DNA of 64,000 nt from Pelagomonas calceolata (GCA_918797485.1 CAKKNE010000006.1:1488001-1552000); one strand, 5' to 3'; shown: positions 45,403-53,418, numbered from the stretch's first letter. The notes: generated from the letters alone by a model not told the origin. Made by a program: numbers and translations.

Positions 45403-46744
45403 CTAGAAATCCCTCTTTATAGGTGGTGTCCGTTGCCGCCCGGATAGCGGCGGCACCGAAGCGACGTCGTCCGCCGCCCCCAGGACAATGTCGACGGGCA
45501 CGCGCGCCGTCACGACGTCGTCGGGCGCGCCGTCGGCGGACACGCGCTGGCCCCGCGCGACCGTCACCTTCACGCTGTCGCCCGGCCGCTTCCGATCTAA
45601 TGCTTTGAATAGGTCCGCCTCGCCGTTAATACTCCTCCCGTCGACGTCCACAATAACGTCTCCTAGTGTGAGCGCGCCGTCTGGCGACCGAGAAGTGCCC
45701 CGGACGCCCGCCAGAGCTGCGGGGCCGTCCGCTGGCGCGGCTAGTACCTGTGTGGAAATCAACCAGTGACCGCGGCCATGTTTTCGGCTCAAACTGGGAC
45801 ACTCGACCGCGTAGAGCGAGCAGCACCTCACGCAGACCACGAGAGACCCCAAATTGTTGAAGTTTGATTTCCTCACCGGCGAGCACCAACACGCCCGCGT
45901 CGATGCCCAGCGCCTTGGCCTGCTGGCCGCCCAGAAAGGTAATACCCAACACGGGCCTCCTCACTCTACCATCATCAACTAAGGCCTTGACGACCGTAGA
46001 TAAAGTGTCCACCGGAATCGCGAAGCCGACACCCGAGGACGCCCCAGAAGGACTATATATAGCCGTGTTCATGCCTATGAGTCGGCCGGACGAGTCCAAG
46101 AGAGGCCCACCGGAATTCCCGGGGTTGATCGCGGCGTCCGTCTGGATGACATTTGTAATTGGTCTTCCGGTAGGACTGCGTACTTCCCGTCCTAGGCCCG
46201 AGATGACGCCCTGCGTCAGCGTGTGGTCCAGGCCGAAGGGGTTGCCCACGGCAAACACGGAAGCCCCCACTCGTAAGTTAGAAGACGTACCGACGGCGAT
46301 CTTCCTTAGTTTGTCTCGAGGTATATCGTCTACGGTAAGTACAGCGATGTCCTTGTCCGGGTCGACGCCTCGCAGCTGCGCTTTCCGCGACAGCTTCGTC
46401 CCGCCGTCCACTAACAATGTAACATCAGCGGCGGCGGCGTTTCTTATAACATGATAGTTCGTGACGATGTGCCCTCGATCATCCCAGACGAATCCAGACC
46501 CCGTGCCCTGGGGCACGTCCATGTTCATGGACACGGCTTCCCGTTGCTCCGCGAAGGTGTCGATGAATACTACGCTCTTCGTGGCCTTCTCGAAGAGTTG
46601 TATGGTTTCTAACTCGGCTTGGCGCAAAGCCGCGGCGTTCGCGGGGAGTGAGGCTAATGAGGCGTAGGCGCCTAAGATTGATCGCCGGTCTAGCGCCGGT
46701 TTGAGCGCATGTGACGTTGCGAGCAGGCACCACGCGCCGCGCAT
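45403..46744 (-). CDS. Deg/HtrA serine protease (Deg1/Deg8 type, probably thylakoid lumen), two exons (46744-45887, 45747-45403)
   Basis: GTGSGFVWD..GHIVTNYHVI, DKDIAVL, IQTDAAINPGNSGGPLL. PDZ GVL|VLAAPADGPA...LGDVIVDVDG is restored after splicing. Confidence 0.9.
45748..45886 (-). mobile_element. Introner element intron (139 nt)
   Basis: TSD GTGCTCGC/GTACTAGC; TIR CGGTGAGGAAATCAA...TTGATTTCCACACAG; splicing from the TSD GT to the TIR AG restores frame. Confidence 0.85.
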
Positions 46745-46899
46745 TGTTCTAGCAGGCACTGCTGCTAAAGCTCGTGCAATGCTAGCGCACGCCTGGTGCT
46801 TAGTCCTGAGCAACGCTTAGCCACCTGGCAAACTTTTGTTCGCGATTTAGTCAGTGCGGGGGCTTTTGCTCGTGCTGGAAAAGTGTGCTGAAATAGTAG

Positions 46900-46921
46900 C
46901 TAGCGGCACGTAAGACACTAG
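46900..46921 (+). promoter_or_regulatory. CTAG-N14-CTAG upstream motif copy
   Basis: ctagcggcacgtaagacactag, 156 bp upstream of the Deg start. Confidence 0.65.
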
Positions 46922-47000
46922 CAGGATTCTAGGATCTTCTTAACTCGCGCACGACTCCGGGACTTCGTTGGAGGTGCGGCGAGGAGGTAGGGGAAGGCAC

Positions 47001-48733
47001 CTAGTGGAGGAAGACAGCGGCGAGCAGGGCCGCGGCGCCGGCGGCGAAAGCGTTCGTGGCGCCGGCGCCGTCCGTGCTCAGGCAGCCGCGGTGCGCGACC
47101 GGCGCCGGGACCGGCACCGTCGTGAGGAACATCTCGGCGTGGATGATGTAGTAGTCGGCGCCGTAGGCCGTGTAGCCCTCGGTCACCATGCGGTCGCTCA
47201 GGGAGTAGTGCCAGTAGGGCGTCACCAGGTGGCTCACAGGCTGCTCCGCCAGGATGGCCGCGTGGGCCTCGGCCGTCGCCGCGACGCGCGCCGTGTGCCC
47301 CTCCGCCACGTTCAGGGCGTCGAGCTTCACGTCGACGTTTGTGGACGAGAAGCCGCCGTTGTACTTGGTGCTGCCCCCGTCGGTGTGAAAAAAATTGTTG
47401 AGGAACGCTGCGGGGTCGCCCGTGGCCAGCACGTTCTGCGACCACATGAGGATGTCGAAGTCCCCGGCGGCGACGCGGTCCGTGAGTTCGACCCAGTCGT
47501 CGGCGTAGAGTCCCCCCGTCGCGTTAAGGTAAGTCCCGTCTGTGGTCATGCGGTCGTTCACAGTGATCCCCAGAGCTTCTAGATTCGATTTGATCTCCGG
47601 TTGCATGAGCCCCAAGTCCGGGCGGAACTCGTAGGCACAGAGCTCGATCGTGAGCTCCTGGCCGTCCTTCGTGCGCTTGTTGGATGAATCGAGCGTCCAG
47701 CCGGCATCGTCGAGGAGTGCCCCGGCCTCGGTCGCTTTGGCCAAGGAACTGCCTAGGTTGTCCTGGTAGTAGGGCGTGTTTTGAGGGAAGAGGCTCCGCG
47801 TGCCATGGCCTCCCTTCAATAAATCCATGGCATCTTCGCGGTCGATAGCTAGATCGATCGCCTGGCGCACCTTGAGGTCCGCAACGGGGCTGGGGGCTGT
47901 TTTTGCCATGTTGTAGAACATCCTGCGCGGGAGACCGTCGGGAGCCGTTCTCTCGTTCGAACGAGTGATCGAGACGCGGGGGCGCGCATGTAGGTCTGGC
48001 TCACCCCGAAGGACCGGACGTTGACGCCGGTCGTGTTTCTTAAAGTATCAAGGGTGTCGACCGGCACCTTAAAAGCGATGTCCAGGTTCGCTGCGTCAGC
48101 GGCCAGCGCGGCCCCGTTTTCGTACTTGGTCATCTTGATCGGGCGGCGCTCGGTGTGCTGCGGGTAATACGTGTTGGGCACCAGGTCGACGTGGTCGTTG
48201 GCGACGAACTCGGTGATCTTGTAGGGGCCCGTGTAGACGAAGTCCGTGCCAACCTTCTTGTACACTACGAAGACATAGTCGGCGAGCACCGCGTCCATGA
48301 TGGGCGTGGCTTTCGTGCTCTTGATCCGCACCGTCCCGTCGCACGGCACCGTTGCCTCGATGTCGCCGAGCGACGACTGCGTATTGTCGTTCATCGTGTG
48401 CAGTTCGTTCAGGCAGTTCGCGACGTCTTGCGCCGTGACCGGGGTCCCGTCGCTGAACTTGTAGTCCGGCTTCAGGTCAATATCCCACTCGAACTCGCTC
48501 ACTTTCCCCGCCGACTGGGCCACCTCCGGGACGATCTCGCCGTCCGCATTCAGCGTAAAGAGCTTCTCCGCGACGCCGTGCATCACGAGCGCCCACCCAT
48601 TCGAATCAAGCCGGGGATCCTGTGATGCCGTCGGCACGAGATGGCCCACCAGCAACGTGTCGTCGGCGGAGGAGAACGTGTCGCCCGCAGCCGCCGCGGC
48701 GCCAAACGACGCCAGGGCAACGAGGACGCGCAT
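47001..48733 (-). CDS. Bacterial-type ABC solute-binding protein family 5 (NikA/DppA/OppA-like) with signal peptide and GPI-like tail; exons 48733-47988 and 47922-47001
   Basis: GVAEKLF...GEIVPEVA, LKPDYKFSDGTPVTAQDV, TGPYKI, DLKVRQAIDLAIDRE, A.ALLDDAGW, L.ALGI.V. Confidence 0.85.
47923..47987 (-). other. 65-nt GC-AG intron (phase 2)
   Basis: TAC AT|GCGCGC...CCCGCGCAG|G ATG TTC joins the two SBP ORFs in frame (SQTYMMFYN). Confidence 0.7.
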
Positions 48734-49097
48734 GAGGCCTGCGCGGGACGGGCGCGGTCTCGCGCTGGTTTGCAACGGCGATTGTTCCTCGCGCGCGCGC
48801 GCGCGAGGGCAGCCCTCGGGCAGCCTCCCAGCAACAAGGGCAGCCGTGCACGCGCGGCGTCGCAATGCCGCCGCAACCGCCCGGCGCAGCACCTACGATG
48901 GCTCGCATGGACGCCGCGCACGCGCTGTTGGATAACGCCATATCGACGCGCAATCGGATGGCAACGAGCCGGAAAGTCTCAAAGAGTCTTGATAATGATT
49001 CTCCTCGCCAGGTGGCCGCGCCTCAACTTCGACTTCGCGCGGCGCCACGCGTGGAGCGGGGAGCGAGCACAACAGCACATTACTCAGCAGCGAGGGC

Positions 49098-49619
49098 CTA
49101 AGAGTCGTCCGAGTCACTATCCGACGAGCCGTACGCGACCAGCCCAGACAAGGGCGCCGGAGCAGGCGCCGGCGCCGGTGCGTCCACCCGCCGCCGCTTC
49201 AGGACCGGCGCGGGACCCTCGTCCACCTTATTCTTCACACGAGGCGCCACGACGACCGAGGGCGCCGGCGCCTTCGCCGCGTCCGCCCGGAACGCCCGCA
49301 CGGCGCTGTCCTCCGCCGCCTTCGCTTTCGCTCGCCGCTCGTTGTCGGCCTGCTGCTGGCCCTTCGTGTACATCATGTCGCTGTGGTCGAAGGCCCCGCA
49401 CTTATCGAGCCAGTGCGGCACCTTGACGGCGGCCTCGCCGTCGGCCTCGAACTCGGGCGCGTCCTGGCTCCCGGCCATGTTCTCGTGCACCGTGCGCATG
49501 GACTGGCGCTCCTCCTCCTCTTCCTTGGTGAACTTGTAGCCGACCTTTTCGAGCTCCGCTTCTTGCTTCTTCGCGGCCCGGTCCCAGAAGGACTGGGCGG
49601 CGTTCGTGTGGCCGGCCAT
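49098..49619 (-). CDS. Hypothetical charged nuclear protein
   Basis: ATG 49619; C-terminal LKRRR...LSGLVAYGSSDSDSDD, a tail type common in small nuclear proteins. Confidence 0.55.
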   Translation of the reverse strand: MAGHTNAAQSFWDRAAKKQEAELEKVGYKFTKEEEEERQSMRTVHENMAGSQDAPEFEADGEAAVKVPHWLDKCGAFDHSDMMYTKGQQQADNERRAKAKAAEDSAVRAFRADAAKAPAPSVVVAPRVKNKVDEGPAPVLKRRRVDAPAPAPAPAPLSGLVAYGSSDSDSDDS

Positions 49620-49835
49620 GGTTTTTTTATGATGCCAAGCAAGAGGACCCCCGGCCCGCGGCACGAGGCCTTGTTTTGAGGGGCGGCTGCGGGTGCGGTC
49701 GGATGCGGTGCTGGGCGCTAGCGGTCGCGCAGCGCGGCAGCAATGCGACGAAGATTACGTTGTGTGAATCCAAGGAGCCAGTCACCGCTTAGCTCGGGCG
49801 ATGGCCTGTCCAACACTTTTGTCAGCGGGAGGAAC

Positions 49836-49856
49836 CTAGCGTGTCAGACACACTAG
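49836..49856 (+). promoter_or_regulatory. Diverged CTAG-N13-CTAG upstream motif copy
   Basis: ctagcgtgtcagacacactag between divergent starts 49619 and 50586, 24 bp from the MITE. Confidence 0.45.
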
Positions 49857-49880
49857 AAACAACAGCGCTCGAGCGCCCTG

Positions 49881-50370
49881 TAGGGCCAGGGACGGACAAA
49901 AAGTTCGGGTCTGAACCGTGTCCGAGTCCGGGCTGGTCTGAGTCCGTCCCAACCTTGGTCTGAGTCCTAGTCCGAGTCTGACTTTTGTCCGAGTCCGAGC
50001 CTGGTCTGAGTCTGAGTCTGAGTCCGAGTCTGAGCCCGAGCCCGGGTCTGAGTCCTAGTCTGAACTTTAGTCTGAGATTTCCGACCAAAAGGGCGATTTT
50101 GGTCCGTTGGGGGATAAAGTTTCCCTCTAGTCCGCTCTCCGTCTGAAGTTTAGTCTGCTCTCCGGTCTGAGTCCTAGTCCGAATCTGAGTCCTAGTCTGA
50201 AGGCTGGTCTGAGTCCTAGTCCGGTCTGAGTCCTAGCCGAGTCTGAGTCCTAGTCCGGTCCGAGTCTGAGCCGGGTCTGAGTCCGTCTCAGTCCGAGTCC
50301 GTCCGAGTCCGAGTCCGAGCCAAGTCCGCCTCGGACTCGGACAAAAGGTTCGGGTCCGTCCCTGGCCCTA
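49881..50370. mobile_element. Non-autonomous DNA transposon (MITE), 490 bp
   Basis: Perfect 17-bp TIR tagggccagggacggac / gtccgtccctggcccta; flanking direct repeat gccctg (49875-49880, 50371-50376); interior of ctgagt/ccgagt/cctagt hexamers. Confidence 0.85.
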
Positions 50371-50443
50371 GCCCTGTGAGACGCCGCTGCTGAGCCTTAC
50401 CGCATCGAGGCGAGGCTGACCCTCGGCGGCCCGGAAGCGGCGG

Positions 50444-50517
50444 ACCACCACAGAGGCAGCCCCGGGGCGACAGACCTCCCACCACCACAGAGGCAGCCCC
50501 GGGGCGACAGACCTCCC
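50444..50517. repeat. Perfect 37-bp tandem duplication
   Basis: accaccacagaggcagccccggggcgacagacctccc x2. Confidence 0.9.
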
Positions 50518-50585
50518 ACCGGACACCAAGGCAAGCCAGGAGCCAACAACAATCTCGACGCCGCCGCGGCGCCCCCACCCCAACG

Positions 50586-52748
50586 ATGTCGAGGCCCGCC
50601 TCGCGCCAGGCCTCCGAGGCCTCCGTGCCCTCGCGGCCCGGCTCGCGCGACATGTTACGGGAGGCGTCGCTGTCCCGACCGTCGACGAGCCACTCGGCGT
50701 ATTCTATTGGGGCGGCGACGCGGGGCGCGCTGTCTCCGATTGTGAGCGAGGGCGCCCTGAGTCCTGATAGAGTCGACGTGAACGACCGCGGCGGGGTCTT
50801 CAAGCTCACCCGGCCCGCGCTGCCTCCGTCACTGCCTCAGATCCCGAAGCCAAAACGAAAGAAGAGCGCGCGCAGCTCCCGAAGTTCGGGCAGCTCGCGG
50901 AGTTCCCGGAGGAGTAGTCGAGGGCCGGCGCCGGCGCCGCGCATTTTGGAGCGGCAGGCGGCGTTCGCCGACGGCGAGTGGGAGAACGAGCTCGCGCGAT
51001 CGATCTTAATCCTCTACGGGAGCGCGATGGGCTGCGGCAAGGAGATCGCGGGCCAGGAGAACGACTTCGCCGTCGACAATGACGCCGTGAAAGCTCTGGG
51101 CTCGAAGGTCACCCAGGACGAGATCGATAGTGGTAAGGCTCGCGAAGCTGCATCTAGGGAACGCAGAGAAAAGAAGAAAAAAAGACCTAAGAGGTTGAGG
51201 AAGCCGCCCTGGGAGTCACCTCCCGATTCTGTCGTCGAGTTCGAGAAGTCGCAGGCGTCCAAGGCTGCTAGTTCGAAACCCTCCATATCGGCGGACCCGA
51301 ACGCCAAGCCTCTACGGCCCGTCTGGTATTTGGGCACGGGCCCCGTCCAGAGCGAGTGGGACTGCCTGCCCGAGGGCGACGACATGCGCTTGGATCTGCA
51401 AGCCTTAGATGAAGCGGGCAAGTACGTCGAATACTTATCTTGTGTGGAGGCGTCGCTCAATGCCTACGTAAGGCGGCGCTGCGACGGCGAGGGCGAGCAG
51501 GGGCGCTTGTTCGGGCGGCTGTGGCGGCAGCTCTGCGTCACGGCTTGTGTGTTTGTCTCGCGGGCCGTCGACCAGAGGCGACCGGCTCTGGCCATGAAGT
51601 TGCTGGACCGCGCGAAGCAGTACTCCGTCTCGAGTGCCGCACACGTCCAAGTCAAGGCGGACGCGCGGGAATTGCAAGCGTTCGTCGAGGACGCGTATGC
51701 GTATTACTACTATTGTCGGGGCAAGTACCACGCGGCCTTACACTGCGTCGTCAAGGCGATGAAGATCCACGTGAAACAAGAAGAACACGCGCACGTCGCC
51801 AAGTGCCACGTGCACAGCGCCTGCATTCTGTCGAGACTTAGGAGGCGGCCGGAGGCCGTGCGGTGCCTGGGGCAAGTTTTGTTCTTAGTGGAGTCGGAGA
51901 AGCTGGACATGTGCGGCGACCAGCCCCACCTGATTTGTTTGGTCGCCATCGCGCACCACAACATGGCCGTGGTACACTGTGTGGAAATCAACCAGTGCGT
52001 CGGGTGCACCCGACAATTCTTCACTAAGTCATTTCTCAGCGATGGCGCGGCCGTCCTGGCTCGGTCGAGCGGTGAGGAACCGGCCTCGCCACGCCATCGA
52101 GCAGGCGTCGCGTCGATGGCGTGGAGGACGAGGCGACGATTCAACACGAACGCTCCGTAAAATTTTGATTTCCACACAGGTGGAACAGCAGGGCCTGGGG
52201 CACTTCGAGGAGGCCGTCGTCTCGGCCCAGAACGCGCGTCGATTGGCGCGGCTCTGCCTGTCCTACTCGAATCGGTGGTTGGAGGCCTTCGAGAACACGC
52301 ACCGGACATGTGCGGAGAGCCTGACGCTGTGTGGAAATCATCCGTAGCTGCGTCTGCTCGATGGCGTGGAGTTTCCAGGCCGTCGACGCGACGTTGTCCC
52401 CGTGACCGCGTCGGCTCGATGGCGTGGATTGTCACGAAGGTCCACGCACTATGATAACCTAACTCACTGGTTGATTTCCACACAGGTCTGACGCAAAAGG
52501 GCGACGTCAATGAAATGGCGAAACAGGGCAGCGACGTGCTAGCCGCGCTCAACGTATCGCGCGGCAGCGACCGGACATCCCTGAACGGGTCCCGGGCATC
52601 GAGTAGGGCGCTGCGGCGCGCGAGCCGCGCGAGCCGCAGCGGCGTGTCGCGCCTGACGCCCGAGCCGGCCGCGCCTGCGTCGCGCCTCGCTCGAACGGGG
52701 GTGTCGCAGGAGTCGAGCCTCGCTACGGGGTCTGTCGTCACGGGGTAA
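50586..52748 (+). CDS. TPR-like helical repeat protein, three exons (50586-51968, 52180-52318, 52486-52748)
   Basis: AYYYYCRGKYHAALHCVVKAM, ACILSRLRRRPEAVRCL, AIAHHNMA|VEQQGLGHFEEA...ES|LTQKG; frame restored by removing two introners. Confidence 0.75.
51969..52179 (+). mobile_element. Introner element intron (211 nt, GT-AG)
   Basis: TSD GTGGTACA/GTGGAACA; perfect 15-bp TIR CTGTGTGGAAATCAA...TTGATTTCCACACAG. Confidence 0.9.
52319..52485 (+). mobile_element. Introner element intron (167 nt, GC-AG)
   Basis: TSD GCCTGACG/GTCTGACG; TIR CTGTGTGGAAATCA...TGATTTCCACACAG. Confidence 0.9.
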
Positions 52749-53418
52749 GGAAATGTGCATCATACCTCTCGTATACTCAAAGCAAGTGTGATTGAGGAGC
52801 GAATTATTTTCGTGGAATTCCCGGCCAGACCAGGCGGACGCTGCGCGCTATCGGCCACAGCGTCGAGAACATGTGATCATCGATATAGTCACAGCTCGGC
52901 AGGATGCACGCGGTGCGCGAGATGCCCTAGACGTCCAGCGACGCGAAGCCGGAGGCCTGCGACAGCTTCTCGTAGCTGAGGGGCCAGGGCAGACCCGGGA
53001 ACTTATCGCATCGTCGCAGCTGAGCAGGCCTGCACTCGCCAGCGCCCCGCCGGCGGCGCCGGAAGATCTCGCCGCCATCCAAGCCGCCACGCAAGGGGCG
53101 CGCAATCTAGCAAATGCGCCCGATGCGCCGCCCGAAATACTGGCGCTGATCGCGGCGATGGCGGCCGGCGCGCCCGCGCCCGCGCGGGCCCCTGGGTCGC
53201 CGCCGCCGCGCACGCGCGCGCGGCCCGCCTCGACGCCGACCCCTGGTCGCCAGCGGCGGCGAACGGGGTCACGGTCGCCCAGTCCCGGTGGTTAGTCCCG
53301 GTGGTTCGGTCGAGATAACGCCTCTCTAAGAGTTCTCCTAGGAATATGGACTATGTTACAATTGAGCAGAGGCATGCGTGGGCCGCCCCATCCCCGACGT
53401 CTCTCAAAGGCCACGACC

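Follow-up and report, generated by a model that had tools for sequence, protein, structure and literature searches.

The introner elements of Aureococcus anophagefferens were reportedly described by Huff, Zilberman and Roy in 2016. As far as the available text of a later report goes, the introners of this alga carry one splice site, recruit the other from the target duplication, occur in either orientation and have repeats and duplications of constant length (Roy et al., 2020, bioRxiv 10.1101/2020.10.14.339549; PMC7789003). For Pelagomonas calceolata, the available parts of the report give 956 putative introners with an intron length peak at ≈210 bp, GT or GC donors, an AG acceptor and conserved terminal inverted repeats (Guerin et al., 2022; PMC9481584), and contain no duplication length, orientation, subfamilies or polymorphism. 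The families of both algae are tabulated in the accessible part of Gozashti et al. (2022; PMC9860276), where insertion in nucleosome linkers is cited as a feature of Aureococcus-type introners. The portion of Gozashti et al. (2025) at hand has no mention of Aureococcus or Pelagomonas. In the literature we found no paper that gives the length of the duplication for Pelagomonas introners, their orientation or their polymorphism; such data may exist in supplements (Figure S3 and file 5 of PMC9481584, the SI Appendix of PMC9860276, bioRxiv) and in the 2016 work on Aureococcus.

Two further groups of introners can be compared with the locus described here. In the text available, the introners of Polarella glacialis (classes 6, 8, and 10) and Symbiodinium share an 8-nt duplication, insertion in either orientation, a carried acceptor and a co-opted donor with our introns, a likeness judged by these features, whereas their hosts are dinoflagellates in which GA donors are also allowed (Roy et al., 2020; PMC9860276). 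The introners of Micromonas differ in that, according to the accessible parts of the reports, they have a 3-nt duplication, carry the donor, co-opt the acceptor and lie on the coding strand (PMC4540971; PMC11282704).

The window, by which we mean the whole stretch of 64,000 nucleotides that was analysed, contains three introns (E1, E2, and E3) in two host genes. All three are spliced exactly: an 8-bp duplication supplies the donor, GT or GC, with its first two bases, and the AG acceptor coincides with the terminus of a 15-bp inverted repeat. We are close to certain of this description, in which the introns are probably introner elements, DNA transposons that are not autonomous and depend on a transposase which the searches did not find. 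Such a mechanism is already published for Aureococcus, and introners that are very likely of this family have been reported for Pelagomonas. The features are given below, together with the empty target site of a fourth element (E4) that is carried by other alleles.

45403–46744, minus strand: host gene 1, a DegP/HtrA-type serine protease with Trypsin_2 and PDZ domains; exons 46744–45887 and 45747–45403.
45748–45886, minus strand: E1 intron, 139 nt, GT-AG, phase 0.
45879–45886 and 45748–45878, minus strand: the two parts of E1, i.e., the upstream duplication copy and the 131-nt element; marked (CCAGTG) end on the 3′ side, 5′ repeat with 2 mismatches.
45740–45747, minus strand: exonic duplication copy of E1, 6/8 match.
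50586–52749, plus strand: host gene 2, a 594-aa protein after splicing; exons 50586–51968, 52180–52318, and 52486–52749.
51969–52179, plus strand: E2 intron, 211 nt, GT-AG, phase 0; duplication copy 51969–51976 plus a full-length 203-nt element of family 1; marked end on the 5′ side, perfect 15-bp inverted repeats.
52180–52187, plus strand: exonic duplication copy of E2, 7/8 match.
52219–52226, plus strand: empty target site of E4, a single copy of the predicted 8-bp target.
52319–52485, plus strand: E3 intron, 167 nt, GC-AG, phase 1; duplication copy 52319–52326 plus a 159-nt element of family 2, shortened beside the 5′ repeat; marked end on the 3′ side.
52486–52493, plus strand: exonic duplication copy of E3, 7/8 match.

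The coordinates, lengths, donors, AG acceptors at the repeat end and orientation marker agree with an earlier description of the locus made from the DNA alone (the sequence-only reading). This reading had also stated that the three introns share terminal repeats and target duplications. When the window was searched for the 15-mer with up to 2 mismatches, 6 matches were found against 0.06 expected, and these are exactly the six element ends. The shared repeat is perfect at both ends in E2 alone (identity 15/15 for E2, 14/15 for E3 with 1 mismatch at its 5′ end, and 13/15 for E1), a point that the sequence-only reading had omitted. The duplication is imperfect in all three introns, and both mismatches of E1 fall at third codon positions. 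A general scan of the window for repeat and duplication pairs gave 409 loose candidates, mostly GC-rich chance pairs; among the 38 of these that were listed, only the three introners and one intergenic element stood out.

Splicing was confirmed with raw poly-A reads from X21 and X24, two runs of one sample of which 6% and 12%, respectively, were read. Reads that skip exactly the intron numbered 58 for E1 (44 in X21 and 14 in X24), 178 for E2 (92 and 86), and 191 for E3 (139 and 52), and these junctions were found among the 15 of 178 joints listed, a sample in which rare alternative junctions could have been missed. The same three joints are present in contigs of X10 and X13. Removal of E1, E2, and E3 gives open frames, as had been proposed, while retention gives a frameshift or stops. 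The spliced DegP junction is identical to the junction of the relatives P0002, P0005, and P0007–P0010, and since the spliced junctions match those of read-through relatives the mRNA length is unchanged by splicing. The locus is an RNA-confirmed example of DNA transposons making spliceosomal introns without harm to the gene. Retention in transcripts had been named as the observation that would count against the sequence-only reading. Exact junctions were seen for all three introns, but inside E1 there are also 8 sense-strand reads per run without differences, so some E1 transcripts are unspliced and the splicing of E1 is incomplete. Over the interiors of E2 and E3 there is a pile-up of reads from other copies, which would mask any retention of these two introns. 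At window position 51977, 5080 and 3616 poly-A reads enter a family-1 element from one other flank, which suggests a highly expressed gene elsewhere with a family-1 copy that either stays in the transcript or belongs to an untranslated region.

Related elements are common in marine metagenomes. An exact scan of metagenome contigs found at least 121 repeat loci, and pairing of the ends gave 79 elements, of which 73 were kept after 6 long or low-GC pairs had been dropped. A duplication length of 8 was perfect in 31/73, while any other length from 2 to 12 gave at most 6 perfect duplications; 19/73 have three or more mismatches in the duplication. In all of the 54 elements with up to 2 mismatches the target begins with GT or GC or ends with the complement, a fit that has a chance of 0.34 in flanking 8-mers (p = 2e-26). 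Relative to the inferred donor, 24 of these elements lie in one orientation and 15 in the other, with 15 ambiguous. Since the marked end is on the 5′ side in one window intron (E2) and on the 3′ side in two (E1 and E3), both orientations occur in the window as well as in the metagenomes, as the sequence-only reading had it. The commonest element length is 203 nt (17/73), which corresponds to a 211-nt intron.

The interiors fall into clusters of 38 (family 1, with E2), 17 (family 2, with E3) and 13 (family 3, from high-GC loci), with 8 singletons that include E1. E2 is 85–94% identical to the 14 best metagenome matches listed, all at unrelated sites, and E3 is 83% identical to the 203-nt element of locus L030, a member of family 2. 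The interiors of E2 and E3 are thus repeated at unrelated sites. The interior of E1 had no match among the 73 elements, and E1 is a putative member assigned by its ends alone; a kinship with family 3 was considered (best z 2.2) and rejected as unproven. Families 1 and 2 have part of their interior in common (z 9.3). The alleles P0178 and P0203 have ∼12 extra residues beside the 5′ repeat of E3, and these peptides, together with the identity to a 203-nt copy, suggest that the E3 of the window was shortened by deletion. Several subfamilies had been proposed from differences in length and interior. E2 and E3 do belong to different clusters and E1 to none, but length is no argument, as E3 appears to be a deletion derivative of a 203-nt master.

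In X2 the summed contig depth is 267,126 over E2 against about 165–205 elsewhere, which suggests roughly a thousand copies as an order of magnitude, although depth is no copy number as such. Full-length members of 203 nt are present in all three large families, one of which has an unrelated interior. A nucleosome-sized constraint may explain this common length. Changes in the repeat number 17 in the 5′ repeat and 8 in the 3′ repeat, with 6 to 1 at position 2; this difference gives no significant sign of a bias towards the 5′ repeat or of selection on the 3′ one (p = 0.11).

The mechanism is that of Aureococcus in every respect claimed by the sequence-only reading, as inverted repeats, an 8-bp duplication, a carried acceptor, a co-opted donor and both orientations were all found. 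The 13 members of family 3 have the identical 15-bp repeat and an 8-bp duplication and are mostly 203 nt long. Of 10 proteins that were looked up, 3 were in the collection, one of them with a species-named cluster member: a protein of locus L031 (family 3, identical repeat) clusters at 90% with the A. anophagefferens protein KAK7233363.1. This indicates that the same ends are used in Aureococcus and ties the window copies to the published introners. In contrast, the interiors of families 1 and 2 are unlike that of this Aureococcus-type family, with no significant similarity in either comparison (z 1.6 and −1.1). The host is another species, since identity between its DegP and that of Aureococcus is only 70–74%; among DegP proteins with a named source, the most similar are from pelagophytes (70–76% identity). 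Host gene 2 had no Pfam match when its first two exons were scanned. The GC content of the window is about 59–77% per 2 kb, and the values published are 62.9% for P. calceolata and 69.9% for Aureococcus, according to the text available (bioRxiv 10.1101/2024.10.30.620910). By GC content and DegP relatives, P. calceolata or a near relative of it is the likely host. With the Pelagomonas introners the likeness lies in the GT and GC donors, the AG acceptor and the terminal inverted repeats, and in the 211-nt length of E2 and its very high copy number, as compared with the description in the available parts of PMC9481584.

In the mechanism we favour, a cut-and-paste transposase would bind the common ends, make a cut staggered by 8 bp and insert a 203-nt element there. 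On the transcribed strand each end of the element reads ...CAG, which provides an acceptor in either orientation. The intron is the element plus exactly one duplication copy, and for this reason the mRNA and protein equal those of the empty allele. Among insertions in exons, only those at targets beginning with GT or GC would persist, and such selection would be why all observed targets start in this way. Decay by point changes and deletion would have followed while the copies were still introns, leaving E3 shortened and E1 strongly diverged. The GT or GC start might instead be a target preference of the transposase, with the same transposon origin and no selection for splicing. The 54 fitting targets were taken irrespective of exon location, and 11 of them fit at both ends, somewhat above the ∼10% expected (an estimate from the 0.34 null), so this reading has something in its favour. 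A symmetric transposase would, however, favour palindromic targets, yet 42/54 fit at one end only, and for each of E1, E2, and E3 splicing uses the end that fits; we therefore consider a target preference unlikely.

Spread through RNA has been proposed for some green-algal and fungal introner-like elements. Here it would mean reverse splicing of the excised intron, with the inverted repeats only forming a hairpin. The ends of E2 do pair in a strong closed fold (z −5.6) and no transposase was found, but the strict 8-bp duplication, the occurrence of both orientations and a donor that comes from each target and is not part of the repeated unit make this route very improbable. It is harder still to believe that these are ordinary old introns whose ends are alike by chance or through a common splice signal. 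The unique interior and decayed ends of E1 would fit such an origin, but there are 6 repeat matches against 0.06 expected, E2 is closely similar to copies at unrelated sites, the sites are empty in close relatives, and other introns in the region lack the repeat. For E2 and E3 an old-intron origin is refuted by family membership and empty alleles. A transposon origin with co-option of a splice site from the duplication, as the sequence-only reading had proposed, is borne out by the junction reads, the 73-element family and the alleles.

The sequence-only reading had also suggested that several subfamilies use one transposase. The common ends are consistent with this, but no autonomous copy was found in the matches from metagenomes, viruses or the genome collection. 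The 31 metagenome loci covered (25 of the 45 unpaired loci and others that were re-examined) contained no long element with a duplication, and none of the 30 window proteins has a transposase domain. In viral contigs a 21-mer search gave 0 matches. The 15-mer gave 53 single matches and 5 loose mates, and the latter are chance pairs as they have mismatches at 5–8 of the 8 duplication positions. The single match in the genome collection is located at a contig end (64% GC) and resembles contamination from an alga. The 8-bp duplication and short repeats agree with the hAT superfamily. Duplications of 8 bp also fit P elements and other superfamilies, and hAT consensus ends start with CA or TA, unlike the element ends here, which start with CTG. 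A RAG-like mobiliser was rejected since AanRAGL, the RAG-like transposon of Aureococcus, has in the available text a 5-bp duplication and bipartite ends starting with CAC (PMC9435367).

Presence or absence of the elements among alleles was read at the protein level from predicted proteins, which are a proxy for the DNA state because gene callers without splicing read into introns; some of the proteins that lack an element could, however, derive from transcripts already spliced in full or in part. The near-identical DegP clusters provided 46 proteins, of which 26 continue into E1, 12 read through and 8 do not cover the site. The 12 read-through proteins are 97–99% identical, and P0153, whose start is within another intron, is uninterrupted at the E1 site. 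The site is also read through in a DegP relative of 85–89% identity (contigs up to 65 kb) and in the Aureococcus cluster. Four DNA runs gave 192 joints; the 15 of these that were listed, swamped by repeat copies, include no empty-site joint for E1–E3, and E1 is present in the wild run X11.

For host gene 2, 11 proteins were compared. P0178 and P0203 lack E2 and keep E3. In P0195 neither E2 nor E3 is present, but there is an insert of 70 residues, E4, that matches family 1 and is flanked by three repeated residues. E4, which is known from peptides alone and would lie in the orientation opposite to E2, is also present in P0196, P0197, P0200, and P0202; the remaining 4/11 proteins are uninformative or have only the E3 site empty. 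Near-identical alleles without each of the three elements are thus predicted, in line with the presence/absence polymorphism expected by the sequence-only reading, and both these alleles and the haplotype with a fourth copy are additions of the present analysis.

At the E1 site (45879–45886) the peptides of two further proteins point to a family-2 element inserted the other way round. The end of P0155 agrees with family 2 at 11/12 residues, and P0003 begins with the marked end and has the rare repeat change of E1 (2/152 ends). Both are single predicted peptides and could reflect a second insertion, a swap between repeats or an assembly chimera.

These allele differences raise the possibility, which we put forward tentatively and at rather less than an even chance, that intron gain is still segregating in wild populations. 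A 140-nt stretch of host gene 2 would then have three independent insertion sites, with haplotypes carrying E2 and E3, E3 only, or E4 only, and the E1 site would have been refilled, or its interior swapped, by a family-2 element in the opposite orientation. If true, ocean metagenomes would offer a population-scale system in which the birth of introns, their hot spots and their replacement could be measured. Insertion differences among near-identical wild alleles would let intron gain be tracked in metagenomes of a very abundant alga. Presence-absence polymorphism of introners in wild populations has already been shown for Micromonas, with possible insertion hot spots, in the accessible parts of the reports (Simmons et al., 2015; PMC4540971; PMC11282704).

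Some other features of the region were also noted. In DegP exon 1, at about 46285, the near-identical alleles P0106, P0151, P0153, and P0204–P0211 appear to carry another intron after IAVG, which has no counterpart in the window and whose peptides are unlike introner ends. Between two genes, 46900–46923 is a short stretch common to many X2 contigs, with 16 loose ends at 46923 of which some are joined to introner sequence; a promoter motif or the end of a further repeat could account for it. The intergenic element at 49881–50370 is MITE-like and 490 bp long; its 17-bp inverted repeat is perfect, its flank is nearly duplicated and its interior consists of hexamer repeats. It is unrelated to the introners and barely transcribed, and one X11 contig that covers both flanks at the same depth appears to skip it. 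RNA joints also define two GC-AG introns without the repeat, at 47923–47987 (65 nt) and 48739–48925 (187 nt), both on the minus strand. They are situated within and upstream of a strongly expressed gene that encodes a bacterial-type family-5 solute-binding protein, a possible case of lateral transfer.
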